Source of the DNA: Gammaproteobacteria bacterium
Lineage (GTDB): Bacteria > Pseudomonadota > Gammaproteobacteria > UBA4575
Length of the DNA stretch: 64,000 bases
Direction of reading: 5' to 3'
Assembly: GCA_022824965.1 (NCBI GenBank)
Contig: JAJDYY010000008.1
Coordinates: 449,482 to 513,481, forward strand
In this document: positions 8,620 through 64,000 of the stretch, one piece after another
Layout of the letters: every line of letters begins with the position of its first letter
Position numbering within the stretch: the stretch's first letter is position 1
Made by a program: the position numbers and the translations under genes
The notes under the pieces: generated by a model
The model's database searches: none
What the model saw: the letters and a program-made list of their open reading frames with translations, nothing else
Told to the model about the DNA's origin: nothing

Positions 8620-8666
8620 TATGTTTTTTTTGAAACAAGCTCGGTGCAAATGCATCAACAAGCACT

Positions 8667-46263: not shown

Positions 46264-47289
46264 CTAGACTGCCTGTTTTTCCATGGCATCCGAGTACTTT
46301 CCGAGTGCTGCCGAACCGTTGCACCGGGCACGCCACAGCAGGGCCTGCTGGGCTTTTTCCACATTGGCGCTGTCACCTTTCCAGACTTGCATCGCCGTCT
46401 GCTGCAGGGCACGCCCATAGGAAAAAGTCAAGGCCCAGGGCCTGGTGCGTTCCGACAAATTGATCGCGTTGAGGTGCTGGCTGGCTTCCTGGTCGGTTTG
46501 CCCGCCCGACAGAAAAGCGATACCGGGTACCGCCGCAGGCACCGTGTTCTGCAAACAACGCACCGTCTGTTCCGCAACCGTTTTCACATCGGCTCGGGCA
46601 CTGTCAGACGAACCCGAAATCACCATGCTGGGCTTGAGCACTATCCCTTCCAGCGCAACCCCCTGATTCTTGAGCTGGTAGAAGACCACCCGCTGGGTGA
46701 GCTCGGTGACATCGTAGCAGCGAGCGATAGAATGATCCCCGTCCATGAGCACTTCCGGTTCCACGATGGGAACCAGCCCCGCCTCCTGGCTTATGCGCGC
46801 ATAGCGGGCCAGAGCATGGGCGTTGGCCTCGATGCAGGCCCAGCTGGGAAGCCCCTCTCCGATCGTGATGACCGCGCGCCACTTGGAAAACCGTGCACCC
46901 ATCTCATAGTACTCGGCACAGCGCTCGGCCAGCCCGTCCAGCCCATGAGTGACCTTCTCGTTCTCGGACCCGGCCAGAGGCTTCGCGCCGCCATCCACCT
47001 TGATGCCCGGGATAATGCCGAGATTCGACAGGTGGTCAGCGAACGGGGCTCCATCCAAGGTTTTCTGGCGGATGGTCTCATCGAATAAAATTGCACCGCT
47101 GACATAGTCGGACAGACCGGGTGCGGTGACCAGCATATCCCGGTAGGCCTGGCGCATCGGTTCCGTGGTGGGGATGCCAAGCTTTTCAAAGCGCTTGTTG
47201 CAGGTTGGATGGCTTTCATCCATCGCAAGAATCCCGCGCCCGGGTGCCACCATGGCATGGGCGATCTTGTTCAGTTCCTCGATATTCAT
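46264..47289 (-). CDS. fba: Fructose-bisphosphate aldolase, class I (Schiff-base type)
   Basis: Class I FBA signature (GRGILAMDESHPTCNKRFEKLG..., ILFDETIRQ, PGIKVDGGAKPLAG, THGLDGLAERC..., FSKWRAV with the Schiff-base Lys context). The ORF opens at 47358; the Met at 47289 matches class I N-termini. Confidence 0.85.
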   Translation of the reverse strand: MNIEELNKIAHAMVAPGRGILAMDESHPTCNKRFEKLGIPTTEPMRQAYRDMLVTAPGLSDYVSGAILFDETIRQKTLDGAPFADHLSNLGIIPGIKVDGGAKPLAGSENEKVTHGLDGLAERCAEYYEMGARFSKWRAVITIGEGLPSWACIEANAHALARYARISQEAGLVPIVEPEVLMDGDHSIARCYDVTELTQRVVFYQLKNQGVALEGIVLKPSMVISGSSDSARADVKTVAEQTVRCLQNTVPAAVPGIAFLSGGQTDQEASQHLNAINLSERTRPWALTFSYGRALQQTAMQVWKGDSANVEKAQQALLWRARCNGSAALGKYSDAMEKQAV

Positions 47290-47361
47290 ACGGTTTCTCC
47301 TCATACGGGTCACAAAACTTGGAACCGGCGGGCAGGTTCGCAAGCCCGCCGATGCCAACCA

Positions 47362-48840
47362 TCATTCCGGTTCTATCAGATGTCCGACACGAACGATTTT
47401 CAGCGCATTCGTACCCCCGTCCACCCCGATCAAATCGCCCTTGGTAATGATAACCAGGTCGTTTTCCTGCACAACCCCGCAGCGGAGCAACACATCGATT
47501 GCATTCTTGTTGACCTCCGCATGGGAGCGGCTGAGGATTTCCATGGGGGCCGGATAGACCCCTTTGTACAAGGTCACCCTTCGCAGGGTTTTCTCATGCT
47601 GTGTCAATGCATAAATGGGAATTTCCGAGCTGATCCGGGACATCCAGAGAGCTGTGGAACCCGATTCTGTCAGTGCGGCAATGGCGGTCACGTTCAAATA
47701 GTTTGCGGTGTACATCGCCGACATGGCAATGGCCTCGTCGACCCTTTCAAATCTTGAATACATGCGATGATCCGATACCGTATTCAAGATCCGCCGCTCC
47801 GAGGCAAGGCAGGTGCGATGCATGGCCTTGACGGACTGAACGGGATACTTGCCCACCGCGGTCTCGCCTGAAAGCATCACCGCATCGGTTCCGTCCAGCA
47901 CGGCATTGGCCACATCCGAGACTTCCGCGCGGGTCGGGATCGGACTGAAGGTCATCGACTCCATCATCTGCGTGGCCGTGATCGCAATGCGGTTTTTGGC
48001 ATGCGCCTGGTCAATCAGCGACGCCTGCACACCGGGGACTTCCGCATCGCCGATCTCGACACCGAGGTCCCCCCGGCCGATCATGATCGCGTCACACTCA
48101 TCCAGGATTTCATCAATGGCATCCAGCGCTTCGGTGCGCTCGATCTTGGCAATGATTCCGCCGCGACCACCGGCCTCCTCGAACAGCCTTCTTGCCTGTC
48201 GGACATCTTCCGCCGAGCGGGGGAACGAAACGGCCAGATAGTCGATGTCCAGCTTCACGGCATCACGAATGTCCTGCCGGTCCTTGTCGGTCAGCGTGGC
48301 AACGGCCAACCCTCCTCCCTGGCGGTTGATGCCCTTGCTGCTCAGCAACTCCCCTCCCATCACGACTTCACTATGGATCCTGCCCTCGGCCACGTCGGTG
48401 ACCTTGAGCACGATCCTTCCGTCATCGATCAACAGGCTGTCGCCTGCGCTCACATCATCCGCCAACCCCGGGTACGTGGCGCCGACCATCGTCTCGTCAC
48501 CCTGGTCGAGAGGCAGGTTCGTATCGATACAGAATGCCTGCCCGGTATCCAGGTGAACCCGCTTGTCCTTGAATGCCCCGATTCTGATTTTTGCGCCCTG
48601 GAGGTCCCCCAGCACCCCCACCTCGTGGTGTTTTTCCTTGCTCAGCCTGCGCAGGGTATCAATGCGCCATCGATTCTCCTTGTAGGAGCTGTGTGAGAAA
48701 TTCAGACGTACCAGGTCGATGCCGACATCGATCAGGCCGGCCATGACCTGCTCACTGTCCGTGGCAGGGCCAAGGGTTGCGATAATCTTGGTATGCCGGA
48801 AAATCGTTTTCCTGTCCCGGACTCCAGTATTTGACTCCAT
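47362..48840 (-). CDS. pyk: Pyruvate kinase
   Basis: PK family motifs (TKIIATLGPAT, MVARGDLGVEI-type IGRGDLGVEIG...). The ORF opens at 48900; the Met at 48840 is the likely start. Confidence 0.9.
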   Translation of the reverse strand: MESNTGVRDRKTIFRHTKIIATLGPATDSEQVMAGLIDVGIDLVRLNFSHSSYKENRWRIDTLRRLSKEKHHEVGVLGDLQGAKIRIGAFKDKRVHLDTGQAFCIDTNLPLDQGDETMVGATYPGLADDVSAGDSLLIDDGRIVLKVTDVAEGRIHSEVVMGGELLSSKGINRQGGGLAVATLTDKDRQDIRDAVKLDIDYLAVSFPRSAEDVRQARRLFEEAGGRGGIIAKIERTEALDAIDEILDECDAIMIGRGDLGVEIGDAEVPGVQASLIDQAHAKNRIAITATQMMESMTFSPIPTRAEVSDVANAVLDGTDAVMLSGETAVGKYPVQSVKAMHRTCLASERRILNTVSDHRMYSRFERVDEAIAMSAMYTANYLNVTAIAALTESGSTALWMSRISSEIPIYALTQHEKTLRRVTLYKGVYPAPMEILSRSHAEVNKNAIDVLLRCGVVQENDLVIITKGDLIGVDGGTNALKIVRVGHLIEPE

Positions 48841-48927
48841 GTCAGTTTCCGGTATCGGGTCGTGCTGTACGGGGCAGCGCGCATGGGCCATTCTGGCCAA
48901 TGGTTATGCTGCGGGTGATTTTACGCA

Positions 48928-50100
48928 TTAGCGATTTGCTCTTTGCTCTAAAATGCCAACGGCGGGCAGGACCTTCCCTTCCAGATATTCAAGAAACGCA
49001 CCGCCTCCGGTGGAGATGTACGAAATTTGATCTCCCAGATCATACAGATCGATTGCGGCCAGCGTATCACCGCCTCCTGCGATTGAGAACGCCTGGCTCT
49101 CGGCAATGGCCCTGGCTATAACCTCCGTGCCCTGCGAAAAGGCTTCAAGCTCAAAAACTCCGACCGGGCCATTCCATATGATTGTACCTGCATTGGACAG
49201 ACAGGATGCCAGTCTTTTTGACGAGTCGGGGCCAAAGTCCAGAATCATGTCCTGCGGGCCAACCTCATCTACCTGCTTTGTCGTGGCCGTCGCAGCTTCA
49301 GACACTTCGATGGCGCAAGCGACATCGGTTGGCAGCGGAATCTTCATTTCCCGACGACGGCCCTCCGCCAGTAGATCCCTGGCGATGCCCACCTGGTCTT
49401 TCTCATACAGGGAATTTCCAACCGGCTTCCCCGCCGCGGCCAGGAATGTGTTGGCGATTCCCCCGCCCACGATCAGCTGATCCACTTTGTCGAGCAGCGA
49501 TTCCAGGATTTTCAGCTTCGTTGAAACTTTTGAGCCTCCCACAATTGCGACCAGTGGCCTGTCCGGCCCGGCCAGGGACTTGTCCAGCGCACGCAACTCC
49601 TTCTCCAGCAGCGGACCCGCACAGGCGACGGGAGCGTACTTGGCAACACCATGGGTTGAAGCCTGGGCACGGTGGGCGGTCCCAAATGCATCCATGACGT
49701 AGACATCGCACAAACCCGCGATCTTTCGTGCGAGCCGTTCATCATTGCTGAGCTCACCGGCCTGGAATCGCACGTTTTCACACAGTGTGACCTGGCCAGC
49801 TTCCGCCTCGATGCCATCCAGCCAGTCTTTCTCGAAATTGACTTCAAGGCCGCAGTGCGCCTCAAGATACTCTGCAACCGGCAGTAGCGAGAAATCCTTG
49901 TCGTAGCGCCCCTCCTCAGGGCGCCCCCTGTGAGAGAGCAGGATGACCTTCGCACCTTGTTCCATGGCCAGACGTATGGTGGGCAGGGCCGCTTCGATCC
50001 GCGCGGCGCTGGTGACCTGCCCGTTTTTCACGGGCACATTCAGGTCCTCACGGATCAGCACACGGCGACCCGCGAGATCAAGGTCGGTCATGCTTAGCAC
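48928..50100 (-). CDS. pgk: Phosphoglycerate kinase
   Basis: Pgk signature ([12 protein letters not shown]..., [26 protein letters not shown]) and 390 aa. Confidence 0.95.
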
Positions 50101-50158
50101 GGGCGGGACCCGGTGGTTGGCCTGGGCGGCGCTGAGTGGTGGCCGCCGGGCTGGCTTG

Positions 50159-51163
50159 TCACTTGGCGCTCATCAGAGCAAGTGTCGTATCCAGCATGCG
50201 GTTGGAAAAGCCCCACTCGTTGTCGTACCAGGAACAGACCTTCACATTGCGCCCGCCCATCACCTTGGTCAGGGATGCATCGAAGTTGGAGGAGTGGGCG
50301 TCATGGTTGAAGTCGACGGACACCAGCGGCGCATCCACGTACCCCAGCACCTTGTCGTCGGCGGCTTCCCGCATGACGGAATTGATTTCATCAACACTGG
50401 TTTCCCGGGCAGCCAGGAACGTCAGGTCCACCAGCGAAACATTGATGGTCGGAACACGGATGGCAAAGCCGTCAAGCTTGCCGTTCAGTTCGGGCAACAC
50501 CAGACCCACAGCAGAGGCAGCGCCGGTTTTTGTGGGAATCATCGACATGGTTGCCGAGCGCGCACGCCGCAGGTCGGTATGGTAGATGTCTGTCAGCACC
50601 TGGTCATTGGTGTAGGCATGCACCGTGGTCATGACTCCATTTTCGACACCGATCTTCTCATGTAACGGCTTCACCATCGGTGCCAGACAATTGGTGGTGC
50701 ACGAAGCGTTGGAAATCACCGTGTCCTTGGCGCTCAGTATGTCGTGATTGACACCGTACACGATCGTGGCATCCACATCCGAGCCCCCTGGCGCAGAAAT
50801 AATGACCTTTTTTGCCCCGGCTTTTAAATGGCCTGATGCCTTCTCCTTGCTGGCAAAAAAGCCCGTACTCTCATGCACGACATCGATATCCAGGTCGCCC
50901 CAGGGGAGCCGGCTCGGATCCCGCTCGGCACATACTCGGATGCGGTCTCCATTGATGACCATGTACTCGCCATCAACCTCGATCGTGCCATTGAACCTTC
51001 CATGCGCGGTGTCAAATCGGGTCAGGTGTGCATTGGTGTTCGCATCACCCAGGTCATTGATGGCAACCACCTGAATTTCCGAGTTGCGGCCCGACTCATA
51101 CAGTGCCCGCATGATATTCCTTCCGATTCTCCCGTAACCATTAATCGCAAGTCTTATAGTCAT
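50159..51163 (-). CDS. gap: Glyceraldehyde-3-phosphate dehydrogenase
   Basis: GAPDH signature ([20 protein letters not shown] with the active-site Cys). The ORF opens at 51253; the Met at 51163 (MTIRLAING) is the likely start. Confidence 0.95.
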
Positions 51164-51197
51164 CACATTCTCCATACTTATCTCGAAAACAAAGCAT

Positions 51198-53198
51198 CTA
51201 TCTGTCAAGCATGGCCAGGGCGTGCTCGACGATACGATCGCTGGTAAAACCAAAATGCTGCATCACGGCTGGACCGGGTGCAGATGCCCCAAACGTGGAG
51301 ATTCCAATGGTATCCCCTTCAAGGCCTACATATTTCAGCCAGTAATCGGACACGCCCGCCTCAACGGCCAAACGACTCCTGACGGCACCGGGCAACACCG
51401 ATTCCCTGTATGCCTCATCCTGGGCATCAAACACATCCGTACTTGGCATGGAAACCAGCCGCACCTTCCTGCCCCGGCTGCTTAATTCTTCCGCAGCCTG
51501 CAGTGCGATTCCAAGCTCAGACCCGGTTGCAATCAGTATGATCTCCGGGACTGTGGAGCAATCGAGCAGGACATAGCCGCCCCTGGCAATGCAGGCGACC
51601 TGGTCTGCGCTACGCGGTATGAAAGGCAGGTTCTGGCGCGAGAAGACCAGGCTCGTGGGTCCGCTGTCGCGTTCGATCGCATATTTCCATGCGACCGCGG
51701 TTTCGACCGTATCCGCAGTACGCCATACCGACATGTTTGGGATATATCGAAGCGTGGCAAGCTGCTCTACGGCCTGGTGCGTCGGACCGTCTTCCCCGAG
51801 TCCGATCGAATCGTGGGTGTATACGAAAATGTTTCTCTGGCCCATCAGGGCTGCCATGCGCAGGGCATTGCGTGCATACTCCGAAAATACAAGAAAGGTG
51901 GCACTGTAGGGGATGAACCCGCCATGCAGGGCAATGCCGGTGTTGATCGCCGACATCCCGAACTCCCGCACACCATAGTAGATATAGTTTCCCGGCACCT
52001 GTTCCGTACTGATGGCCACCGAACCGGACCACCAGGTATTATTGGAGCCGGTCAGGTCCGCAGAACCTCCGATGATTTCGGGCAGAAGGCTTGCATACCC
52101 TTCCAGGGCGAGTTCCGAGGCCTTGCGCGTCGCAACGGTCTGTTCTTCGGCAACCGCCTTGGCGACTACCTCGTCCGATTCCGTGTCCCAGTCCGGTGGC
52201 AAGTCTCCCTGCATCCTTCTTGAAAACTGGGCGGCAAGCTCCGGGTGCTGCTGCTGGTAGTGTCCAAATTGCTCTTCCCACAGGGCCTGGCGTGCCCTGC
52301 CCTTTTCCGTGGCATCCCACTGGCTGTACACGGACTCGGGGATGTGGAAAGGCCGGTGCTCCCAGCCAATCCGGGCGCGCGCCTGTTCAATCTCCTGCTC
52401 GCCCAGTGGAGCACCGTGCGTGGCTGCCGTACCCTGCTTGTTCGGTGCGCCCCAGCCAATCACCGTTTTGCAGCAGATCAGCGTAGGACGGGTCAGCGCA
52501 TCCCTTGCATTCTCGATCGCCGTTTTGATCTGGGCGGTATCATGACCATCCACGTCTGCAATGACATGCCATCCGTAGGACTGAAACCGCTTCGGGGTAT
52601 CGTCTGTGAACCAGCCCGCGACCTCGCCGTCTATGGATATCCCGTTGTCATCGTAAAACACGATCAGCTTGCCTAGCCCGAGCGTTCCCGCAAGGGAGCA
52701 GGCCTCATGCGAGATTCCCTCCATCAGGCATCCATCACCCGCAAATACGTAGGTGTAGTGGTCGACAATGTCCAGATCACCCCGGTTGAAGGTCGCCGCC
52801 AGAACCTTTTCCGCCAGCGCCATGCCCACTGCATTGGCCAGACCCTGTCCCAGCGGGCCGGTCGTGGTTTCCACGCCAGGGGTGTCCCCGTACTCCGGAT
52901 GTCCCGGAGTCCTCGAATGCAGTTGCCGGAAGTTCCTGATCTCTTCCATGGAGACGTCATACCCGGTCAGATGCAACACCGAATACAACAACATGGAGCC
53001 ATGGCCGTTGGACAGAACGAAGCGGTCACGATCCGCCCACCCAGGATCGTTCGGATTGTGCTTCAGATAGTCATTCCACAGCACCTCGGCAATATCGGCC
53101 ATGCCCATCGGCATGCCGGGATGACCGGAGTTTGCACACTGCACCGCATCCATGCTCAATGCACGGATCGCATTGGCAAGCTCCAGGCGGTTCTCCAT
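51198..53198 (-). CDS. tkt: Transketolase
   Basis: TPP-binding and transketolase motifs ([26 protein letters not shown]...) and 666 aa. First gene of the tkt-gap-pgk-pyk-fba array. Confidence 0.95.
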
Positions 53199-53267: not shown

Positions 53268-53298
53268 AAATAGAAAAGGTCCTGCATGCCGCAGGACC
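53268..53298 (-). terminator. Candidate Rho-independent terminator downstream of the GPP34-P450 gene
   Basis: On the + strand, aaaaGGTCCTGCatgccGCAGGACC. Read on the - strand this is an 8-bp GC-rich stem followed by a U-run (uuuucuauuu). It lies about 285 nt past the stop, so the assignment is tentative. Confidence 0.4.
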
Positions 53299-53582
53299 CT
53301 GTAGTCCCATTTCCGGGGGCGCTATTGTGAAATACTTGCCCAGACAGGGCAATAGTCACTTGGCAGGCCGCTACAGGAAATCAGTCTGCTAAAGCCTCAA
53401 TCAGCGCGGAAACTTCTCTCAACGCGGCATCAAGCCAGATGTCTGATTTAAAGTAAATATCCCGTATGAAGATTTTTCAAAATCATGGCGCCGGGATGGA
53501 AAAACGGACGGAACGTAGGGGAATTTCTGTCCCTTTGCCGGCAGGGAGCGGGTATCGTTTTGTGCAAGATGGTCCGGACAGC

Positions 53583-55583
53583 TCAGGCCGGATCAAGCGG
53601 ATGGCGGTGCCTCACCACTCTGAATTTAAACTTCTTGTCGGGACTGAGCTTGGGCAGGGGGTTGATTCTGAGCTTGTAATCGGCCGGCACCATCTCCAGT
53701 TCCAGGTGGCGTGCAACCAGGAGCACGTTGATGGCCATCTGCAATTCGGTCCAGCGGGCACCACCACACATGTGCGTACCGACGCCGAAGGGTACGTACA
53801 CACCCGCAGCTTGCTTGTGCTCGTTTCTCGGTGGCGCATACCTTTCAATATCAAAGGTCTCCGGGTCCTTGAAGTATTTCTCGTCAAAATGAACTGCGGG
53901 AAAAGCGATCAGTATTGTACTGTAGGCCGGTATCTCCATGTCCTCGACCTCAAATGCGTTCATGGCGGTACGCAGGTGCATGGGGATCACCACATGCAAA
54001 CGTAACACCTCCATCACAAACCGGCGTGCCACATCGATCGTCGACGGATTGATTTTTTCGGCATCCGGATCTCCGTCGGCAAAGAGAGCATCCGCCTCAT
54101 CCGCAAGCTTGGCAAGCAAGTCCGGATTCGCCAGCATTTCATAAATTGCGAATGCCATGGCACTTCCCAGGTAGTGTCCGGCAATGATCGGTGCGATGAA
54201 CGCAAACCCAAGGTCGGTTTCCGGCAGGAACTGAGGATCGCCCTGGTGCAACTCCATTAGGTCATCCACCAGGTCCCGGCGTTTACCCTCCCGTTGCGCG
54301 GGCGTGTGCGTTGCGTGGATCTGTGCATACAGATCCAGAACGCGTGCATGGGCCCGCTTCATGGCCGGGGTGCGCAATGTGAACTTGGGCAGGATCCGGA
54401 ACACGTGAACGAGCAGAGCCCGGTATTCGAAGGCCAGCAACGCATCGAGTATGTCACCGGGATCGATGCTGACACTGAGCTGGGCAATCTGCTCACCGAT
54501 CAGTCGCTGGGACGCCATCTCCCCGGCGATCACGTTGCCCACTCCCCAGTTTGCAAACGTACGTCTGCCCATGGCCAGTACTTCTGCCATCCGGTCCTCG
54601 ACCACTGCCCGGGAATTGCCCGCCTGCACGGCCTTGCGCATGCGGAAGTGATCTGCACCATCCATGCTGGCAATCGACCGTGCGGTTCCCCACTCTCTTT
54701 GAAAGCCGCCAATATAATCCTGGGTGCGAAGGTAAAGGCGGCCCTTATGTCCGACCCAGCGATTCAACTCTGCACTGGCAAACACCACCATGTCGCGACC
54801 GCCGGCATTGATTCTGAAAACCGGTCCCAGTTCCCTGGCTTTTTCCGCCATGAACTTCGGCAGGTTTCCCGAACGAAACGTCTTCGATGAAAGCATGCCG
54901 AACAGTCCGAAGGTCGGCAGCGGCGGCCGCTGTACGGAACGAATACTTGCAGGGGGGCGATAGGAACTGCGTACGGCGGAAGCGATCGTCCGACCGATCA
55001 GGTCCATCCCGCTGAAAAGTTCGATGCGTTTCTCAGCGAGTTCGTATTCCTCGGGTTCCAGCAGGGCACGCATCCCGTCACAGCTGTTCATCAGGCCGAT
55101 GATGGCAAAGTCGCGGGGGTCCGGAATCTCGTCATCCAGCAGCGCCCGCGAAATCCTGCTCTTGATTTCTTCGCCGGTTTTGCCATCGACTGTCGGGTAG
55201 CGCCGTGAGCGGGCAACCTTGCCCGACAGGGACCAGAATCCGCCTTCATCGGCATTGAGTATGCCCATCTTCACCAGGCGATCGAGTGTCATGTTGCTGA
55301 TCTCATCCGAGCGCTTGGCGATGCGTTCGACCCAGTACTGGGGAGAATGTACCTGCTTGTCCTGGGCGATTTCCTCCAGCGTGGGATCCAGCAGAGGATC
55401 TCCGAGAGGCGTCGGATCGAGCAGGGTGAGCGTTTCGAGGTCCGAATCTATCCGGTTTTCGAATGAAAGGTCGATCAGCACGCTGCCGGCCAGCACGCAC
55501 GACATTTTCCACTCCGGGATGGGAATGAAATAGCCTGTCTTCTCGCTCAGCAACAACAGGAGTATTTCTTCAGCAAATCGCAT
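53583..55583 (-). CDS. Fusion protein: N-terminal GOLPH3/GPP34-like domain (about aa 1-205) plus C-terminal cytochrome P450 (about aa 215-666)
   Basis: The N-terminus aligns with GOLPH3/Vps74 family hallmarks (AEEILLLLLSEKTGY...CVLAGSVLIDLSFENRI...GDPLLD...QYWVERI...LVKMGIL...EEIKSRISRALLDD). The C-terminus has P450 K-helix ExxR (EVLRLH), a PERF-like FDIERY and the heme-thiolate loop FGVGTHMCGG. It is a single uninterrupted 666-codon frame. Confidence 0.75.
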   Translation of the reverse strand: MRFAEEILLLLLSEKTGYFIPIPEWKMSCVLAGSVLIDLSFENRIDSDLETLTLLDPTPLGDPLLDPTLEEIAQDKQVHSPQYWVERIAKRSDEISNMTLDRLVKMGILNADEGGFWSLSGKVARSRRYPTVDGKTGEEIKSRISRALLDDEIPDPRDFAIIGLMNSCDGMRALLEPEEYELAEKRIELFSGMDLIGRTIASAVRSSYRPPASIRSVQRPPLPTFGLFGMLSSKTFRSGNLPKFMAEKARELGPVFRINAGGRDMVVFASAELNRWVGHKGRLYLRTQDYIGGFQREWGTARSIASMDGADHFRMRKAVQAGNSRAVVEDRMAEVLAMGRRTFANWGVGNVIAGEMASQRLIGEQIAQLSVSIDPGDILDALLAFEYRALLVHVFRILPKFTLRTPAMKRAHARVLDLYAQIHATHTPAQREGKRRDLVDDLMELHQGDPQFLPETDLGFAFIAPIIAGHYLGSAMAFAIYEMLANPDLLAKLADEADALFADGDPDAEKINPSTIDVARRFVMEVLRLHVVIPMHLRTAMNAFEVEDMEIPAYSTILIAFPAVHFDEKYFKDPETFDIERYAPPRNEHKQAAGVYVPFGVGTHMCGGARWTELQMAINVLLVARHLELEMVPADYKLRINPLPKLSPDKKFKFRVVRHRHPLDPA

Positions 55584-55648: not shown

Positions 55649-56686
55649 CTACACTTCCACTGAGCGCAGGTTTCTTTGCTGCGAGTGCCCATCCTGGTGC
55701 TGCGGATAGAACTGTTCGCAATACCTTCTGTAGAGCGCAATCTCGCCATCAGCACGGCATAACTGCGGACGGGATCGGTAGCGTTTTCGACTCCATATCA
55801 CGACATCCTGCAAGACATCGCGTTTTTGTGTCGATGCAATGATCTTGTTATAGATTTTTGTTCGCAACCCCACAGGAAGGAAGCGCATGCCGATAATCGG
55901 CCGCTTCGGTCTGCGCATTTCCCGCAACTGTCCCACCAGGGTCAAGTCAATGAGTGTCCCGTCAACGGGTGTGGCCAGGACCCACAGCCTCGCATCCATG
56001 CCCAGGGTGCGTTCATGAATCTGCACAAACGAGTAACCCAGCCCGAAGACATGCGTGATGGCAGAAACATCAAATACGAAATTCAGGATGCCTGCGATGT
56101 TCCGGGTCCGCTTGAAATCAAAGCAGCTTTCAAGGCATGGGCCATTCACGGATACCGATGCTGTCCGGCAGACGTTGCTGTAGCCATGCACATAGCGCAA
56201 GTGCGCCAGATCCACCGAGTTTTCAGTTGTTTCCTGAGGATGGCCGGGAAATCGCATGCCCCTGAATTCCAGCTCGCTCCAGTCGGAGCCGGTTGGAGGG
56301 TCTTCGGGAAGGCTCCATGATGAAGACAGCCCATGATTTCCCCACCAGGCGAAAACAAGACCCAGAAGCTCGCGCGTTTCAAACACCTTCAGTTTCGCGG
56401 ACCGGGGCGCAGGGGCAAAGGGAGTGGCTACACACTGGCCGCCCGCATCATATTCAAATCCATGAAACGGGCAAACAAGACGGCCATTTCGCACCTTTCC
56501 TCCAGCCTCTGGGCCCAGTTCCGAACCCAGGTGCGGGCACACGGATTCAGCTACGCAAATCTGCCCTTCCGCGTCACACCAAGCGACTATTTCCTGGCCC
56601 AGCCAAGTTTTCTGAATCAACTTCTTCTTGACAATGGATTGACGGCTGGCCACGAAATACCAGCCCTCGGGAAATGGGAACAGCAA
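55649..56686 (-). CDS. Rieske [2Fe-2S] non-heme iron oxygenase, compact single-subunit type (KshA/PAO/Neverland-like)
   Basis: Rieske motif CPHLG-x17-CPFHG (aa 50-75), mononuclear Fe motif D159-x2-H162-x4-H167 (DLAHLRYVH) and 345 aa. Confidence 0.8.
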   Translation of the reverse strand: MLFPFPEGWYFVASRQSIVKKKLIQKTWLGQEIVAWCDAEGQICVAESVCPHLGSELGPEAGGKVRNGRLVCPFHGFEYDAGGQCVATPFAPAPRSAKLKVFETRELLGLVFAWWGNHGLSSSWSLPEDPPTGSDWSELEFRGMRFPGHPQETTENSVDLAHLRYVHGYSNVCRTASVSVNGPCLESCFDFKRTRNIAGILNFVFDVSAITHVFGLGYSFVQIHERTLGMDARLWVLATPVDGTLIDLTLVGQLREMRRPKRPIIGMRFLPVGLRTKIYNKIIASTQKRDVLQDVVIWSRKRYRSRPQLCRADGEIALYRRYCEQFYPQHQDGHSQQRNLRSVEV

Positions 56687-56904
56687 TGGAGAATTAGTGC
56701 TCTCGGCTTGAGTGACCTACATATTTCATTGGATGCCTAACAGTTTGCAAGCTCATCCAGGTGCTGTGATCAACTAAAGATACCACATTCATGATGTCCA
56801 AGAGCACGGCTCCACAGCAACGTTAGCCCATACCCTGCCAAGATCATTGCTAAACCCGTGTTTGCGAGAAGCACAGTGCAGGCGTACAGGACTGCCTGCA
56901 GAAT

Positions 56905-59900
56905 TTAATCGGCGGTGCGGGATGCAGCCGTAGTGGTGGGAATACCTGCTTCAGTGCCTTTCATCCGCCTGCGCAGGTGAATCGACATCAGCGCAGGGAT
57001 GACCATCATCAGGATGGCCGTGGTGATCATGATCCCAAACCCGAGCGATGCGGCAAAAGGCACCAGGAACTGGGCTTGAATGGAACGTTCAAGAATGAGT
57101 GGCGTAAAGCCGAGAAATGTGGTCACGGAGGTCAGCAAAATCGGACGGAACCTTCCTTTCGCACCCTCAATGATTGCACTTCGGGCAGGCGAGCCTTCAT
57201 CAAGCTTCTGGTCGATAAAGTCGATCATCACCAGAGAGTCATTCACAACTACCCCGCTCAGGCCGAAGATACCCATGAATGAAGCGGCACTCATGGCAAC
57301 GCCCAACACCCAGTGGCCGAGGATCGCACCGATCAGCCCAAAAGGGATTACGGCCATGATGATAAACGGTTTGGTATAGGAGCGCAGGGGGATGGCGAGC
57401 AGTGCGAAGATCATCAGCAAAGCGAGTACGAAACCACGATTCAGCGAGTCCAGAGACTCCATCTGCTGCTGCTGTTCACCCCCAAACGTGTAGGTCAGGT
57501 CCGGGTACTCTGCCGTGAGACCCGTGAGAATTGAATTGGCTAGAATACTGTTAGCTTCTCCACTAGATATCATTGTTTGATCCACATCCGCGGTCACTGT
57601 GACGACACGTTGCCCGTCTTTGCGTCGAATCGAGGGCGGCGAGATACCCGATTTGAGCTGAGCCACTTGGCTTAACGGGACCTCTGCTCCGCTCGGTGTG
57701 TGGATCAGGTACCCTTCAATGTCGGTAATGGCATTGCGTTCATTGGCCGGTAGCCGCACATACACGCGGACCTCTTCACGGCCCCGTTGAACCCTCAAGG
57801 CCTCGGCACCGAAGAACGCAGAACGGGCCTGCTGAGCCAGTTCCTCAAGTGTGAGCCCGAGCGTTCGCGCTTCGGGGCGCAACTCGATCTGGATTTCCCG
57901 GATTCCAGGGGAGTGGTCGGAGCGTACGTCAAAGACTCCACCTATTGCACGCAGGCTGGCGACCATGGAGCTCGCAATATCGGCCAAGCGCTTCGGGTCG
58001 GGATGCGACAATACGGCCTCGACAGGATTGCCAAGATCAATAATCTCGCCGCTGAAGGCGAGACCCCGGACATAGGGAAGCACACCGACCTCTTCCCGCC
58101 ATGCATCCACCACCGCGCCTGTGGAAATCTCGCGCTGCTGTGCGCCCAGCAATTTGAATTCTATGGTGGCAATATTGGCTTGCGGATTGAGTGTGGGCTC
58201 AGGCACCAGTCCGCCACCCTCTACACGCGGCCCCTGACCGACGGTCACGGTCACCCCGGAAAGCAAGGAAGGCGAACCCTCGGCCCGCTCTCGAGAAAGC
58301 CGTTCGATCGCCCGGTGACCCGCGGTCTCAAGCTCTCTCGCCACCTCGTACGTCCTCTGCGCGGTCGTGCCATCAGGCATTTCCAGACTGGCCGTCACGA
58401 AGTCTCCTTCAACCACATCAGCAAAGGTCGTCTTGACGATCCCCGCAGGCAACAGGGATATACTGACGATGAGCAGCCCGATGGCGCCAGCAACGGTCAC
58501 CACGGGCTGAGCCGTCGCAAAATGCAGGGCGCGGTCCAGGGGGCCTTTCAGAAATTTGCTGACCGCCTGATCGACCAGGCCCTGGGCCTGGGCAAAAAAA
58601 CGTTCAACGGGACCCGTGGGTACATGATCCGGTCCATGCAGATGGGACAGGTGATTGGGCAAGATCAGCAATGACTCGACCAGGGAAATCAGCAGCATGG
58701 CAATGATGATCACGGGCAGGGCGCCCCAGATTTCCCCGATCCCCCCGGGAATAAAGAGCAGCGGGGTGAACGCCGCGACCGAGGTGAGAACGGCAAACGT
58801 CAGGGGTATCTTGATTCGCCGTGCCCCGCGAATGGCCGCCGCTACCCCCGCTGTACCGCGCTTGCGCTCGTAGTGGATATGTTCTGACACCACGATCGCG
58901 TCATCGACCACGATGCCGATCGCTAGAACGAACGCGAACAGGGATATGGTGTTGATCGCAATGTCGAGCGCCAGCATGACTGCCAGGGCACCAATGCCTG
59001 AAACCGCCAGGCCGGCGGCAACCCACACGGCGAGCCGGATTTCCATAAACAGAGCCAATGCAATGAATACCAGGAGCAGCCCCAGTGAGCCGTTTTTTAC
59101 AAGCAGGTCGACACGTTCCGCATAGGACTGGGATTCATCGTTCCAGATGGTGACCCCCACACCTTCAGGAAGGGAGGGGATGATCACATTTGCGACATGG
59201 TCCTGTACGGCGGTCGCAACATCCATCACCTGTTCCCCGTCGGACCGGTAGACCTCAACGAAGGCAGCAGGCTGATTTTGGTGCCGGACGATCAAGTCCG
59301 TGTCCTGGAAGCCGTCGCGGACCACGGCAATATCACCCAGGCGGACGACAGTACCGTCGCTGCGGCTCAGAACCACGATGTCTTCGAAATCCTGTTGATC
59401 GTAGCGCTGTCCAAGCGTACGCACCCGCACCTGCGCCTCCTGCGTTTCGATACTGCCCGCCGACAGGTCCAGGGAGCCATGGCGAATGGTGTCTGCGATG
59501 CTTGTCAGGGTCAGGCCCAGGGCACGCAGGCGCTGCTGTGGTACTTCGATGGAGATTTCATAATCCCGAACACCGCTGGTATCCACCGATGACACGGCAT
59601 CAAGCGAAGCGAGTTCATCCTCGACCCGGTGTGCCAGCTCCTTGAGTGAGCGTTCAGAAGCATTACCGTAGACAATGAGACGAATCACGCTTTGCCGATT
59701 GGTCATTTCCCTGAACTCCGCACGCTCTGCCCCGCCTGGGAAGGACTGGATGCGACCTACCGCAGATTTGATATCATCCAGTGCCCGGCCGATATCCGTA
59801 CCCGATTTCAGCTCGATTCGGATGGATGCCATCCCCGGAGCCGCCACGGACTTCACTCTCTTGATGTCATCCAGCGAGTTGACCTGCTCCTCGATCTTGA

Positions 59901-60126
59901 CGATGATCGATTCTTCCACCTCCTCGGGCGTGGCACCCGGATAGGCCATGGACACCTCGATCGTGTTGAAGGGCAAGGTGGGCCAGGCCTCACGCTCAAG
60001 ACCGGTCAGCGCTACCAGGCCGGCTGCAAGTATGGCGACCATGAACAGGTTGGCAGCGACACTGTTGCCCGCCATATAGGCGATCGGTCCGCCTGGCTCA
60101 CCCGGATGACTGGCGCTGCGGCTCAT
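56905..60126 (-). CDS. RND efflux transporter inner-membrane permease (AcrB/HAE-type)
   Basis: About 1050 aa with twelve transmembrane helices and two large periplasmic loops; RND family N-terminus (NLFMVAILAAGLVALTGLEREAWP...). The probable start is the Met at 60075. Confidence 0.9.
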   Translation of the reverse strand: MSRSASHPGEPGGPIAYMAGNSVAANLFMVAILAAGLVALTGLEREAWPTLPFNTIEVSMAYPGATPEEVEESIIVKIEEQVNSLDDIKRVKSVAAPGMASIRIELKSGTDIGRALDDIKSAVGRIQSFPGGAERAEFREMTNRQSVIRLIVYGNASERSLKELAHRVEDELASLDAVSSVDTSGVRDYEISIEVPQQRLRALGLTLTSIADTIRHGSLDLSAGSIETQEAQVRVRTLGQRYDQQDFEDIVVLSRSDGTVVRLGDIAVVRDGFQDTDLIVRHQNQPAAFVEVYRSDGEQVMDVATAVQDHVANVIIPSLPEGVGVTIWNDESQSYAERVDLLVKNGSLGLLLVFIALALFMEIRLAVWVAAGLAVSGIGALAVMLALDIAINTISLFAFVLAIGIVVDDAIVVSEHIHYERKRGTAGVAAAIRGARRIKIPLTFAVLTSVAAFTPLLFIPGGIGEIWGALPVIIIAMLLISLVESLLILPNHLSHLHGPDHVPTGPVERFFAQAQGLVDQAVSKFLKGPLDRALHFATAQPVVTVAGAIGLLIVSISLLPAGIVKTTFADVVEGDFVTASLEMPDGTTAQRTYEVARELETAGHRAIERLSRERAEGSPSLLSGVTVTVGQGPRVEGGGLVPEPTLNPQANIATIEFKLLGAQQREISTGAVVDAWREEVGVLPYVRGLAFSGEIIDLGNPVEAVLSHPDPKRLADIASSMVASLRAIGGVFDVRSDHSPGIREIQIELRPEARTLGLTLEELAQQARSAFFGAEALRVQRGREEVRVYVRLPANERNAITDIEGYLIHTPSGAEVPLSQVAQLKSGISPPSIRRKDGQRVVTVTADVDQTMISSGEANSILANSILTGLTAEYPDLTYTFGGEQQQQMESLDSLNRGFVLALLMIFALLAIPLRSYTKPFIIMAVIPFGLIGAILGHWVLGVAMSAASFMGIFGLSGVVVNDSLVMIDFIDQKLDEGSPARSAIIEGAKGRFRPILLTSVTTFLGFTPLILERSIQAQFLVPFAASLGFGIMITTAILMMVIPALMSIHLRRRMKGTEAGIPTTTAASRTAD

Positions 60127-61352
60127 GGTCTCGAGCCGGCCTCGCTGCGAACCATCATGCCCTCGGTCGCAAACTGGATTCCCCCGGTGATGACTGCAAG
60201 ACCTTCCTCCAGGGCCCCCGTTACAAAAACTTCATCGTCGCCGCGCTGCAGCACCTGTACCGGGACAATTCCGACCGACTGGTTTTCGCGAACCACCCAT
60301 AACTCGTTGTTCGATTGCAATGCGGAACGCGGTACCTGGAAATAGCTTTCGGGGGTGATGCCCTGGATCTCTATTTCCACAAATTTGCCGATCAGCAGCG
60401 GGGGGGCATGCTCGGGACGCGCCGCGCCCTGCACCTGCTCACTCCTGGAAAAGGGGTCCGGCACCCGCACGACCACGTCAATGGTTCGTGTCTGCTTGTC
60501 CAGCGAGGCTTCGGCCCGATCGACGTAGCCGTTCCACGCAAAGCTTTCATCGCCGAATCGGGCAATCACGCGCGCAGGCACCTGCCGTTTGCCATTCCCC
60601 TTCTGCAGTTTCCACAGCCCGGGGATCAAGGCCGTGCTGGCATCGGAAAGAGGGATCACCACTTCGACAGCATCGGCAGCGAACAGTCGTCCCACTGACT
60701 TGCCCACCGACAGGAACTGTCCCTTGTCCACGAACTCTTCGCGTACATAGCCATCAAAAGGTGCATTCACCTTCGTCCTGGACAAAGCCAGCCTAGCTTC
60801 TGCCACCCTGGCTTCCTCGCGCTTGAGTGCCGCCTGAGCCGCCTTCAACTGGGGTTCGCGCAACACCAGGGGGCTCGCCTGGTCCACCGTGGCCCCGGAC
60901 TCAAGCTGTCGCCCTGAATACTGCTCGTATTCACTGCGTGCCACCGCTGCCAGTTCCTGGGCCTCGAGAAGTGCCACTTTTCGGTCTTCAAGGTCGGCCA
61001 TGGCCTCGCGAAGGCGATACTGGTAGTCCGCCTGTTCAATGCGGAACATCGTCTCGCCGGCCTTGAGTCGCCCGCCACTGTGGAAATTCGGATTCACCCA
61101 GTCGACCCTGCCTCTGACTTGCGGGGTGACATCGATCTCGGCACTGGGCCGCACCGTACCGGCCCCGTACACGGGGATAGCCCCCTGCCCGGACATCACC
61201 CGGGCCGTGTGTACAAACGGAATCTGGGGCGGCTGTTCACGACGCTCCGGCTCAGGGGCCAGGGACACCAGAATGGATGCCAGCACCACCGCGCCAGCCA
61301 GAATTCCTGCGGCAACCAGGTAACCTTTCAGTTTGTTCTTCAGTCTGTTCAT
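60123..61352 (-). CDS. RND efflux periplasmic adaptor (membrane fusion protein)
   Basis: N-terminal membrane anchor, coiled-coil hairpin and beta-barrel/MP domains (HlyD/AcrA-like). 4-nt overlap with the RND gene. Confidence 0.85.
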   Translation of the reverse strand: MNRLKNKLKGYLVAAGILAGAVVLASILVSLAPEPERREQPPQIPFVHTARVMSGQGAIPVYGAGTVRPSAEIDVTPQVRGRVDWVNPNFHSGGRLKAGETMFRIEQADYQYRLREAMADLEDRKVALLEAQELAAVARSEYEQYSGRQLESGATVDQASPLVLREPQLKAAQAALKREEARVAEARLALSRTKVNAPFDGYVREEFVDKGQFLSVGKSVGRLFAADAVEVVIPLSDASTALIPGLWKLQKGNGKRQVPARVIARFGDESFAWNGYVDRAEASLDKQTRTIDVVVRVPDPFSRSEQVQGAARPEHAPPLLIGKFVEIEIQGITPESYFQVPRSALQSNNELWVVRENQSVGIVPVQVLQRGDDEVFVTGALEEGLAVITGGIQFATEGMMVRSEAGSRP

Positions 61353-61358: not shown

Positions 61359-62936
61359 TTACTCAGTGGGTAAGGTTGCAACTTGCGGGCCCGCAACCTG
61401 TGGAGAATCGTCAATTTGTACGGCACCTGGTTCAGAAGCCGTCCACACACCGCCCAGGGCGCGGTGCAGCGCGAGCCGCATGTAGCCCAGGTCACGTTCT
61501 GCCGCGACCAGCGAGGACCTCATGCTGGTGAGGGTTTCCGAAGCGGCCAGAAAGTCATCGTAATCCCCGACCCCGGACCGGTAGCGCCGCTCCTGGAAGG
61601 CGGCCTCCGCCCGGGCTTCCTTAACGGACGAGTTCAGCAGGGCATGGCGGTGGTAACTGGTCTCCAGCTGGGCCAGCACCGCCTCGACCTCGTTGACCGC
61701 AGTCACCACTGAGTGCTTGTAAGCGGAAACCGCTTCTTTCAGCCGGGTCTCAGCGAGTGTCACATTGTGGCGCAGCCGCTTGCCCTGAAAAACCGGTCCT
61801 ACCAGATTCAGGCTCAGGTTTTTGAACCACTGGTCCGCATCAAACCACTGGTCAGTGTCCGAGCCCTGCAGGCCGATGGAGCCGGACAAGGACAGGGACG
61901 GCAGGAGTTCAGCCCGGCGGGCACCGACGGCATAGCGCGCCGCTTCCATGTGCTGGCGGGCAGCGCCCACATCGGGGCGTTGCGCGAGCAGGTCCGCAGG
62001 AATACCCACCGGAACGTGCTCGAGCGTCATTGACGGGGACAGGGAATCGGGCAACACGCCAGCCAGGTCCGCCCGGTATCCTCCCAGCAACACCCAGAGA
62101 CGTCCCTGTGCATCGGCCAGCTGGCCCCTGACCGCCGGCAGTTCAGCCTGAGAATTCCACAGCTGCAGGCGCGCGGTATAGAGTTCGCGTGCGGTATTCA
62201 GGCCACGGTGATACCGGGCCGTGGTGAGCTTCTCGCGCTCCTTCAGAATTCTCACAATCTCGTCGGACAGCCCGAGTTGCCGTCGCAGCCAGGCGACTTC
62301 GATGTAAGTATGCACGGTTTCCGCAACGACCCCGATACGGGCTGCACGGTGATCCCACTCGGAAGCCAGGTGCCTGGCACGGGCCGCCTGTGCATCATGG
62401 CGGTTGCGGCCCCAGAAGTCGGCCTCATAGGAGAATTCCGTGCTCAAAGAGTACGTGGTCACCGCCAGGCGGTCCGGCACGGAAATGCCAAACTCCTGCT
62501 TGAGTTCCGGGCTCAACCCGATCTCTTCGATCTGCTCACCCACTCCGGCATTGGTCGGTGAATCGGTGTCCTCGGCTGTCACGGATGGCTGCAGCGCAGG
62601 GTACCTGGCCGCATTCGCAATGCGGGCCCGGGCCCGGGCCTGCTCCACACGCGCCACGGCCCCCTCCAGGTCGAAGTTCGACGAAAGCGCGGCTTCCACG
62701 ACCCGATCAAGTACCGGATCGTTGAATGTCTTCCACCACTCCAGCGGTGCATAGGCCTCGGCCACCGCCTCCCCCGTGAATCTCTCGGGCAATGGCGGCA
62801 CGGGCTCCTGCGCCGGCAGGAATGATTTTTGTGAACACGCGGCCATAAGAAATCCGGTGATGACCGGGAGAAGTACCGCGGGTGCACGGTGGCGCCGGTG
62901 TGTAGTCAATCTTCCTGAAACAGTTGCCATTATCAT
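61359..62936 (-). CDS. Outer membrane efflux protein, NodT/TolC family lipoprotein
   Basis: Lipobox-like LMAAC after the signal sequence and the duplicated OEP alpha-helical/beta-barrel repeats. The ORF opens at 63068; the Met at 62936 is the likely start. Confidence 0.8.
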   Translation of the reverse strand: MIMATVSGRLTTHRRHRAPAVLLPVITGFLMAACSQKSFLPAQEPVPPLPERFTGEAVAEAYAPLEWWKTFNDPVLDRVVEAALSSNFDLEGAVARVEQARARARIANAARYPALQPSVTAEDTDSPTNAGVGEQIEEIGLSPELKQEFGISVPDRLAVTTYSLSTEFSYEADFWGRNRHDAQAARARHLASEWDHRAARIGVVAETVHTYIEVAWLRRQLGLSDEIVRILKEREKLTTARYHRGLNTARELYTARLQLWNSQAELPAVRGQLADAQGRLWVLLGGYRADLAGVLPDSLSPSMTLEHVPVGIPADLLAQRPDVGAARQHMEAARYAVGARRAELLPSLSLSGSIGLQGSDTDQWFDADQWFKNLSLNLVGPVFQGKRLRHNVTLAETRLKEAVSAYKHSVVTAVNEVEAVLAQLETSYHRHALLNSSVKEARAEAAFQERRYRSGVGDYDDFLAASETLTSMRSSLVAAERDLGYMRLALHRALGGVWTASEPGAVQIDDSPQVAGPQVATLPTE

Positions 62937-63120
62937 GCAGCCTATCGCACTACGCGTGCGATGCAGAAACTTCTGATCAGCGACCTTCTCATCGAGCCCT
63001 CGTCTGCTCGGGCAGAGATTATCCGTCGCTGCGCCATCATCCATAACAGGCGGTCCGGCCATTCCCACTGCTCAGGTTCAGCCGGTGTGCCTTCCCTTTT
63101 GGCTTATCTCGGGCCAGACG

Positions 63121-63678
63121 TCATGCCTTCCACTTGATGTTGCACCCTACACTGGGTTTCTGTTCGGGATCGATACTTTGACCCGCCAGCAGGGCATCAA
63201 GGGCAAGGCGCAGGCTTTCACCGGTCACAGGGATGTCATTGCCCGGTCGCGAATCGTCCAGCTGACCCCGGTACACGCATCCCAGTGCCTGATCGAAGAC
63301 ATAGAAATCGGGCGTGCAGGCCGCATCGTACAGCCTGGCCACCTGCTGGGTCTCGTCATACAGGTAAGGAAAGGTATATCCGAGGGACGCCGCCAGGGCC
63401 TTCATGTTTTCCGGTGAGTCCTCGGGATACTGGACGGCATCATTGGAACTGACAGCAACCAGCGAGACACCGCGGGCAGGATACTCCTGGCCGAGCCGGA
63501 CCAGTTCGTCCTGGACATGCTTTACGAAGGGGCAATGGTTGCATATGAACATGACCACGGTCGCGATCTCGCCACGCACGTCCGACAGGCACACTTCCTT
63601 CCCGGAAACCGTATCCGGCAGGCAAAATTCCGGCGCCGAGGTGCCCAGGGGCATCATGTTGGAGGGTGTGCGCGCCAT
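63121..63678 (-). CDS. Thioredoxin-fold thiol-disulfide oxidoreductase (AhpC/TSA-redoxin family)
   Basis: CxxC in thioredoxin-fold context (VVMFICNHCPFVKH), 185 aa from the Met at 63678. The ORF opens at 63999 through an implausible leader. Confidence 0.75.
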   Translation of the reverse strand: MARTPSNMMPLGTSAPEFCLPDTVSGKEVCLSDVRGEIATVVMFICNHCPFVKHVQDELVRLGQEYPARGVSLVAVSSNDAVQYPEDSPENMKALAASLGYTFPYLYDETQQVARLYDAACTPDFYVFDQALGCVYRGQLDDSRPGNDIPVTGESLRLALDALLAGQSIDPEQKPSVGCNIKWKA

Positions 63679-63780
63679 GGAATCAGGAATGCATTTCTTA
63701 AATGTACTCGAATTGCGTAGAATAGCGCGATTCAAGGCGCCTGTTAACCGTTGACAGGCCATACCAGACCCAAAGAGGCC

Positions 63781-64000
63781 CATGCCTGCGACACGTGTTT
63801 TCACCTCCGAGTCCGTATCTGAGGGGCATCCGGACAAGATGGCAGACCAGATCTCCGATGCGGTGCTGGATGCCCTTCTCGAACAGGATCCCGGTGCCCG
63901 CGTAGCCTGCGAAACCCTTGTGAAAACCGGCATGGTCGTGCTGGCAGGAGAGATCACCACCTCGGCCCACGCAGACCTCGAGTCCCTCGTGCGGCGCACT
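63781..64000 (+). CDS. metK: S-adenosylmethionine synthetase (5' part; continues beyond the window)
   Basis: The translation [60 protein letters not shown] matches the highly conserved MetK N-terminus. The gene has no stop within the window, so it is absent from the ORF table. Confidence 0.9.

Follow-up and report, generated by a model that had tools for sequence, protein, structure and literature searches.

The window analysed here is a stretch of 64,000 nucleotides from a gammaproteobacterium of the UBA4575 lineage (GenBank assembly GCA_022824965.1, contig JAJDYY010000008.1, positions 449,482 to 513,481). It carries a gene that joins a domain of the GPP34/GOLPH3 fold to a cytochrome P450, in a string with genes for a Rieske oxygenase and a tripartite efflux pump of the resistance-nodulation-division (RND) type (Table 1). 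The open reading frame (ORF) of the fusion is free of internal stops, and its ATG start follows an AAGAGG-like ribosome-binding site at a distance of about 8 nt. The original prediction, made from the letters of the DNA, had placed a GOLPH3-family domain at 54969..55583, which corresponds to residues 1-205 of the fusion protein. All of the motifs it quoted are present, both those of GPP34 (AEEILLLLLSEKTGY, LAGSVLIDL, GDPLLD, WVE and LVKMGIL) and the heme loop FGVGTHMCGG at residues 599-608. Pfam matched PF05719 to residues 4-204 (profile positions 2-198 of 201) with E = 1.7e-33 and 116.8 bits against a cutoff of 29.1, and PF00067 (E = 9.3e-38) to a complete P450 domain in frame behind it. When a profile of the N-terminal domain family was compared with human GOLPH3 by hhalign, residues 62-274 of GOLPH3 were matched with 97.1% probability (E = 5.8e-11) over 175 columns. 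Judged by these profile scores, the assignment is far above chance level, and residues 1-205 were confirmed as a true GPP34/GOLPH3-family domain.

The same architecture, which had been suggested as something to search for in other genomes, is widespread. Full-length GPP34-P450 proteins were found in more than 120 protein database clusters (65-100% identity to the window protein) and at 80 loci from GTDB species representatives, and this recurrence of an uninterrupted ORF, in hundreds of independent assemblies, rules out a frameshift or assembly artefact. The closest genome is OZ244850.1, the 1.97-Mb chromosome of an uncultured gammaproteobacterial metagenome-assembled genome (MAG), which encodes a 96% identical protein in the same gene order. 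An exhaustive search returned dozens of full-length representatives, taken at 50% identity, that are 28-51% identical, which shows a fusion family that is both old and diverse. Pfam also resolved P0125 (872 aa) as GPP34-GPP34-P450 and P0173 (444 aa) as a tandem GPP34-GPP34 protein without a P450.

The original prediction knew of no described P450 class with this architecture. In fact 656 proteins of this kind have been reported under the name GPP34_L, from sponge symbionts only (Ferreira et al. 2025, Microbiome 13:4, PMC11706023), and the window protein is another member of this published, biochemically uncharacterised family. The layout is identical, an N-terminal GPP34 and a C-terminal P450 domain in ~660-690 aa, and the phyla are the same; the window protein shows no structural difference from GPP34_L, and only the functional reading given below differs. 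According to that study GPP34_L is monophyletic and is expressed in Aplysina metatranscriptomes. The study also describes rare fusions of GPP34 to a Rieske domain or to an ABC ATPase, besides GPP34 genes that stand alone and adjoin P450 genes, and it proposes for GPP34 proteins a role as secreted effectors, binding phosphatidylinositol 4-phosphate (PI4P) of the host and blocking phagosome maturation. Its text holds nothing on sterols or efflux, or on what lies beside the gene of the long form; loss of the PI4P pocket, affinity to CYP51 and a neighbourhood of RND, Rieske and sterol methyltransferase genes are not reported in it. We found no further functional work on bacterial GPP34 in the literature. 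None of the 120 best homologues of the window's Rieske protein was a GPP34+Rieske fusion, which leaves PMC11706023 as the sole source for that architecture.

In the direction of transcription the order at the window locus is outer-membrane channel, adaptor, permease, Rieske gene and fusion gene, with gaps of 218 bp before the Rieske gene and 65 bp before the fusion gene. The adaptor and permease genes overlap by 4 bp, and the permease also matched NCBIfam RND_permease_2 (428 bits). Permease, adaptor and channel are contiguous, as in a tripartite RND system, and the adaptor and the channel score above the cutoffs of TIGR01730 and TIGR01845, respectively. The Rieske protein (PF00355, 61 bits; PF19298, KshA_C, 78 bits) carries both iron motifs, CPH...CPFH (CxH/CxxH) and DLAHLRYVH (DxxHxxxxH), and among solved structures it comes closest to the KshA steroid 9-alpha-hydroxylases (E about 1e-22 to 5.8e-22). 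With KshA of the KshA/KshB system (PDB 2zyl, 4qdc) it shares the Rieske and KshA_C pair, the iron motifs and a C-terminal QDVxIW, but identity is low, there is no adjacent KshB-type reductase and the gene does not lie in a kst/hsa steroid-catabolic context. Assignment of the gene as SdmA was rejected, the score on NF052579 being 36.4 bits against a cutoff of 600 and confined to the Rieske domain.

Table 1. Features of the fusion gene and of the adjoining genes in the window (positions are those of the 64,000-nucleotide stretch).
Feature	Position	Strand	Basis
GPP34-P450 fusion gene, 666 aa, GPP34_L member	53583..55583	minus	ORF list, Pfam, homologues
GPP34/GOLPH3-fold domain, residues 4-204	54972..55574	minus	Pfam PF05719, hhalign
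Inter-domain linker, residues 205-225	54909..54971	minus	Family conservation
Cytochrome P450 domain, residues 226-660, putative CYP51-like lineage	53604..54908	minus	Pfam PF00067
I-helix motif A468-G-H-Y-L-G-S474	54162..54182	minus	CYP51B1 alignment, column frequencies
Heme-thiolate loop FGVGTHMCGG, Cys606, residues 599-608	53760..53789	minus	Sequence read directly
KshA-like Rieske non-heme-iron oxygenase	55649..56686	minus	Pfam Rieske + KshA_C
RND inner-membrane permease, AcrB/HAE1-like	56905..60126	minus	ACR_tran, E = 6e-159, 531 bits
RND periplasmic adaptor (membrane-fusion protein)	60123..61352	minus	HlyD_3; TIGR01730, 143.7 bits
Outer-membrane efflux channel, NodT/OEP	61359..63068	minus	Pfam OEP; TIGR01845, 281.9 bits
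AhpC/TSA-type thiol-disulfide oxidoreductase-like gene	63121..63999	minus	Pfam AhpC-TSA
Terminator-like hairpin between fusion gene and tkt	53276..53300	minus	11-bp stem, 6 GC pairs

Conservation of this string was counted at those 57 of the 80 GTDB loci that have both 10-kb flanks. They represent Gammaproteobacteria, Binatia, Gemmatimonadota, Acidobacteriota and further groups; Alphaproteobacteria and Latescibacterota are represented among the loci whose flanks are truncated. An orthologue of the RND permease lies no more than 10 kb from the fusion gene in 49 loci (86%) and a KshA-like Rieske gene in 36 (63%), and one or the other was present in 54 (95%). The RND adaptor was found in 39 and the outer-membrane channel in 35. 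Gene orders and strands within the cassette differ among loci. Because identities across phyla are very high (medians of 72.7% for RND, 67.1% for the fusion and 61.7% for the Rieske protein), they imply that the cassette has probably been shared horizontally, in agreement with the monophyly of GPP34_L.

Recurrent neighbours emerged when all ORFs of the 80 loci were clustered without bias. Besides the pump and the Rieske gene, three families recurred: a sterol C-24 methyltransferase (SMT), an amine-oxidase-type flavoprotein and a dehydrogenase of the 3-beta-hydroxysteroid dehydrogenase (HSD)/epimerase type. The SMT (PF08498, Sterol_MT_C, E = 1e-21, with the motif YEYGWGxSFHF) was present in 18 of the full-flank loci (32%). 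SMT genes stand inside the cassette in at least six lineages, and at six loci they lie 0-760 bp from the fusion gene, in differing orders; one arrangement reads Rieske, fusion, SMT, RND, adaptor, channel. An SMT is present, too, in a relative of the window organism at 80% identity, in which the tkt context is unchanged. In Binatia the fusion gene is part of a longer series: Rieske, fusion, amine-oxidase-like flavoprotein, SdmB-like (309 bits), SdmA-like (417 bits), two to three copies of SMT, a membrane protein and an oxidosqualene cyclase (OSC; TIGR03463, E = 4e-112). The SdmA-like Rieske gene of this series is different from the Rieske gene of the module, whose product scores 29-36 bits on the SdmA model.

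ERG24-CYP51-LSS and SMT/SdmAB clusters acquired by horizontal transfer have been described in sponge symbionts of the same phyla, and certain SMTs of these symbionts yield 24-isopropyl sterols in vitro (Kelly et al. 2022, PMC9531527; Brown et al. 2023, PMC10070321). Those clusters occur in the same organisms and are likewise lipid gene sets shared horizontally, and the Binatia fusion gene is contiguous with SdmA-like, SdmB-like, SMT and OSC genes; unlike in those clusters, the Rieske protein of the module is not SdmA. Neither the fusion gene nor the pump is mentioned in PMC10070321 or PMC9531527. A canonical CYP51 and an SdmA are already present in the published clusters, so that the fusion P450, like its Rieske partner, is presumably an extra enzyme and not a replacement. 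The fusion P450 was also considered as the C-14 demethylase of such clusters, and this was rejected: the clusters carry a canonical CYP51, and likewise an SdmA, of far higher similarity. Given the sterol genes found near the fusion in relatives, a lipid substrate for the P450, as raised in the original prediction, is plausible.

Conservation of individual residues was scored over 62 aligned family members. The catalytic motifs of the P450 domain are invariant, namely the heme loop with Cys606, the E525-x-x-R528 pair and a PERF-like FDIxRY. Within the heme loop F599, G600, T603, C606 and G608 do not vary, and G602 and H604 are kept in 61 of the 62. With the profile match, the cysteine-ligand loop, ExxR, the PERF-like motif and the fold all in place, the domain is identified as a P450, and from its motifs it looks catalytically competent. 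The nearest solved structures by sequence are all CYP51: Mycobacterium CYP51B1 (6.7e-26), Methylococcus CYP51 (~3e-22) and M. tuberculosis CYP51 (3e-19), the next family, CYP3A, following only at 1e-16. CYP51 (PDB 6mcw, 7jj1, 7snm) is also among the top structural matches, and other structural neighbours are CYP3A4, BM3 and CYP184A1. Identity to the CYP51 entries is 16-22% over 401-467 structure-aligned positions, and about 20-22% over the full domain for the closest CYP51 structures. Membership in CYP51 requires at least 40% identity under P450 nomenclature, and by this rule the domain falls outside the CYP51 family proper.

The resemblance to CYP51 takes in the type of heme loop (FGxGxHxCxG), an AGH-like I-helix and occurrence in bacteria with sterol genes. 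In the I-helix the family consensus is AGHY[T/L]GS, compared with AGHHTSS in bacterial CYP51, so that HT has become Y[T/L]; Y471 is invariant in place of the His. The window protein reads AGHYLGS, with Leu at the Thr position as in half of the family, and the fusion family thus departs from the CYP51 signature (A/G)G(Q/H)HTS. Unlike CYP51, the fusion P450 has an N-terminal half that is not aligned by sequence. A bacterial P450 of CYP51 type with an additional domain has a precedent in the CYP51-ferredoxin of Methylococcus capsulatus, but there the extra domain is a redox domain, and here the partner is N-terminal and is not one. P450 BM3 (CYP102A1) is likewise a soluble bacterial P450 of eukaryote-like class with a second domain, and it is a strong structural match. 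Unlike BM3, the fusion has its extra domain at the N-terminus with no recognisable cofactor-binding motif, and because of this the enzyme would not be self-sufficient.

The GPP34 and P450 parts are equally conserved (mean identity to the query 70.3% and 69.7%, respectively), and conservation equal to that of the catalytic domain would show the GPP34 domain to be essential. The linker between them has an invariant S-S-Y-R-P-P, with S207, Y208, P210 and P211 the same in all 62 members, and in most members a basic RxxRRR cluster (R215, R218-R220). An AlphaFold2 (AF2) model of the two-domain chain, built with the 62 sequences, reached a predicted local distance difference test score (pLDDT) of 84.1 and a predicted template modelling score (pTM) of 0.79, and in this model the protein is predicted to be one confident two-domain body. 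A model of the N-terminal domain from the single sequence was discarded (pLDDT 35.6).

In the model the GPP34 part appears mainly helical, with a putative beta-hairpin. The fold is homologous to that of GOLPH3/Vps74 (PDB 3kn1, 9qpq, 2zih), with most core motifs and 30% identity over 175 profile columns. Unlike GOLPH3, the domain is fused to an enzyme and has no N-terminal disordered region, and the Golgi/COPI context in which GOLPH3 works is absent from bacteria. We take the PI4P-pocket residues of GOLPH3 to be W81, R90, R171 and R174, with the numbering checked against the 9qpq chain. W81 is retained, as W25 in all 62 members. R90 is Ala32 in 61 of them, R171 is Asp/Glu93 in 55, and R174 is Ser/Asn/Gly96 in the alignment; three of the four residues are therefore replaced, one of them by charge reversal. 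Over the family the net charge of the GPP34 domain runs from -23 to -9, with a median of -17, that of the P450 domain being +5. The conserved basic pocket anticipated in the original prediction is thus not there. Given these replacements in the pocket and the strong acidity of the domain, it appears unlikely that GPP34 binds phosphoinositides or other anionic headgroups.

GOLPH3 has a conserved, flat acidic patch that captures the short, basic, membrane-proximal tails of its client enzymes (Welch et al. 2021, PMC8421267). The acidity of the bacterial GPP34 domain recalls this patch, and by analogy a docking role like that of GOLPH3 would be compatible with the conserved features of the domain. 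Invariant in the domain are the acidic residues E24, D46, D48, D62, D66, E86, E139 and E152 and the cysteines Cys29 and Cys168. The sole conserved basic cluster that we found lies in cis, in the linker (R215, R218-R220). Docking of GPP34 on a basic N-terminus of the RND pump was rejected, the conserved N-terminus HGEPxGPIAYMA not being basic. GPP34 may still place the P450 at a membrane or a partner, but by a mechanism other than the PI4P pocket.

Several side observations concern the module itself. A database representative 100% identical to the Rieske protein is 357 aa long; the window ORF encodes 345 aa from a TTG start and is limited, in the region 55649-56722, by an in-frame stop at 56717-56719. 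The start differs either between strains or between gene callers. A second, divergent GPP34-P450 paralogue (663-704 aa, ~43-44% identical) was present in many relatives, at L003, L004 and 10 of the 80 GTDB loci, often back to back with the first; at L001/L007 it occupies 7777-9891 on the minus strand. In a 91%-identical relative the second paralogue lies between the Rieske and fusion genes, and the window is single-copy, with only the 65-bp gap there. Bin-name prefixes of the relatives (APA_, RHO3_, COS_, SB066x_, jk18, p16) are presumably sponge-host codes. The bin of locus L021, Plut_88898 (JAAXHV010000174.1), may, to judge from its name, be coral-derived (Porites lutea); if it truly is, the description of the family as exclusive to sponge symbionts may be slightly too strict.

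In the Binatia, two or three tandem SMT genes adjoin the SdmA/SdmB-like and cyclase genes (L014 15846-19279, L022, L023), and the cyclases in ORFs of 1096 and 1269 aa (L022, L083) could be squalene-monooxygenase/cyclase fusions. Between the SMT genes and the cyclase there lies a multi-pass membrane protein of ~240-340 aa (ORF cluster 36; L014 19934-20956, L022 17941-18672) that had no Pfam or NCBIfam match and is a candidate sterol-pathway component. A 243-aa protein without a Pfam match (ORF cluster 20) occurs at six gammaproteobacterial loci (L059 8004-8735, L058, L081, L025, L041, L052), just upstream of the Rieske gene in L041, L059 and L081. The gammaproteobacterial locus L002, that of P0009, carries at 490-8062 a squalene/phytoene synthase, a sulfotransferase, two short-chain dehydrogenases and a START-like Polyketide_cyc2 protein, and an IS110 transposase there interrupts a second GPP34/P450 pair. 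Genes of a ferredoxin-NADP reductase (FNR)-like/4Fe-4S type were seen near the fusion only at six related Porisulfidus/Chromatiales loci, and the matches of a regular expression for small ferredoxins were rejected, all being out of frame.

The AhpC/TSA-type gene at the head of the gene string is only weakly associated with the module: it was found at 5-7 of the 80 loci, six of the seven from the small-genome clade to which the window belongs. In the Acidobacteriota locus L004 a gene of this kind (7877-8770) is the immediate upstream neighbour of the Rieske gene. Downstream of the fusion gene the module adjoins a tkt-gap-pgk-pyk-fba string (46264-53198, minus strand), and the hairpin in between gives weak evidence of a possible end of the transcription unit. 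A scan for promoters and terminators gave site counts no higher than in shuffled controls. Other genes of the window encode an H+-pyrophosphatase, LptD-SurA-PdxA-KsgA, the trp operon and pur genes, and the stretch 349-2355 on the plus strand belongs to the same core context. The rest of the window is ordinary gammaproteobacterial housekeeping, common to the 1.9-2.1 Mb MAG chromosomes of the clade.

The explanation that we prefer, with a probability of roughly 0.4, is that the cassette encodes a cytoplasmic pair of oxygenases tailoring a sterol or triterpenoid, together with a tripartite RND exporter, and that GPP34 is a docking module that does not act through PI4P. The data establish the identities of the domains, the loss of the PI4P residues, the acidity of GPP34 and the conserved gene neighbourhood; from these we infer which class of substrate is oxidised, what the pump does and in which direction, and that GPP34 docks. 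The CYP51-like P450 and its KshA-like Rieske partner would oxidise a sterol or a related polycyclic triterpenoid. In some relatives this lipid would be made, or methylated in its side chain, by the neighbouring sterol genes; in the small-genome gammaproteobacterium of the window the host or the community may supply it. The co-inherited RND pump would move the substrate or the product out of the cell envelope. GPP34, having kept the GOLPH3 fold and lost the PI4P pocket, would most likely be a protein- or membrane-docking adaptor in the place that the N-terminal membrane anchor takes in eukaryote-type P450s, and docking may use the acidic surface, as GOLPH3 does for basic membrane-proximal tails. 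An accessory role of GPP34 for oxygenases and transport fits the pattern of fusions and adjacent genes in PMC11706023.

Several observations weigh against this explanation. When the P450 part was compared with CYP51 by phmmer, only its residues 186-425, the C-terminal half, aligned. Queries with SMT, the amine-oxidase-like flavoprotein, HSD and FNR gave no match in the 64-kb window, which also holds no OSC or other sterol gene, so that the link to sterols comes from the relatives. No ferredoxin or reductase is consistently adjacent to the fusion gene among the loci. The RND pump, moreover, is of the general multidrug (HAE1) type and not of the HpnN/BstA type, whose members move hopanoids and sterols.

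Some of these same points favour general detoxification, the alternative that survives best and that we nevertheless consider unlikely. In this case the P450 and the Rieske protein would hydroxylate diverse hydrophobic metabolites of the host or the community and the RND pump would expel them, with GPP34 as an accessory. Sponges are rich in bioactive metabolites, the permease, adaptor and NodT channel are all of multidrug-efflux type, the window locus holds the oxygenases and the pump with no sterol genes, and the structural neighbours of the P450 domain include broad-specificity enzymes (CYP3A4, BM3, CYP184A1). Detoxification leaves unexplained, however, why SMTs are repeatedly interleaved and why, in several phyla, OSC and SdmA/SdmB-like genes are adjacent. 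Nor does it account for steroid enzymes being the closest relatives, by sequence, of both oxygenases, and conservation as high as this across phyla (67% in the fusion, 73% in RND) points to a single, specific substrate that has been conserved.

Two other accounts assign a lipid-binding function to GPP34, and both are improbable. In the first, that of the original prediction, a basic pocket of the domain binds a phosphoinositide or another anionic headgroup and tethers the P450 to the membrane. Homology to GOLPH3/Vps74 speaks for such a tether, and conserved arginines of the domain (R87, R125, R128, R143, R146, R157) could form a different local site, but the arginines of the pocket itself are lost, the domain is strongly acidic, and production of PI4P is not known for most of these phyla. 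In the second, which is no more probable, GPP34 is a lipid handler that binds the sterol or triterpenoid and presents it to the P450, or in the rare fusions to a Rieske protein or an ABC transporter. GPP34 does recur, fused or adjacent, with three lipid- or transport-related partners (PMC11706023), tandem GPP34-GPP34-P450 and GPP34-GPP34 proteins exist, and the invariant linker and the confident two-domain model speak for it too; the GOLPH3/Vps74 fold, on the other side, has no hydrophobic cavity that we know of.

The secreted effector proposed by Ferreira et al. (2025, PMC11706023), which would bind PI4P on the host phagosome and block its maturation, has in its favour that reports of the family come from sponge symbionts alone, that expression in situ has been seen (PMC11706023), and that GPP34 has common ancestry with the eukaryotic PI4P effector GOLPH3 and conserves W81 of the pocket, but we regard it as very improbable for a protein with three of the four pocket residues replaced, one of them reversed in charge, a GPP34 net charge of about -17 and no N-terminal Sec/Tat signal (the GPP34 domain starts at residue 3-4, and therefore there is none; the sequence is silent on type III/IV/VI secretion), joined to a heme enzyme dependent on redox partners in the cytoplasm and encoded in an operon-like string with a Rieske gene and an RND pump, joined in relatives by genes of sterol biosynthesis. 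The only published idea on the function of these proteins thus fits the sequence evidence poorly. The conserved association of the fusion gene with RND, Rieske and SMT genes appears to be unreported, and it contradicts that hypothesis.

If the sterol reading is wrong, the window protein is an ordinary member of a described but uncharacterised family. If it is true, the cassette names candidate enzymes and an exporter for bacterial sterol modification inside sponges. A further step, possible but doubtful, is that the cassette of sponge symbionts, with its interleaved SMTs, makes or remodels unusual sponge sterols and delivers them to the envelope or the host, GPP34 being the adaptor on which the enzymes dock, and that bacterial oxygenases thereby feed the sterol inventory of sponges. 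That inventory underlies the debate over the biomarkers 24-isopropylcholestane and 26-methylstigmastane, and the sterol reading, if true, would bear on which organisms produce those unusual sterols of sponges that serve as the oldest biomarkers of animals. It would also provide the first functional context for prokaryotic domains of the GOLPH3 fold, and a new way of positioning a soluble P450, by an N-terminal adaptor instead of a transmembrane anchor or fusion to a redox partner.

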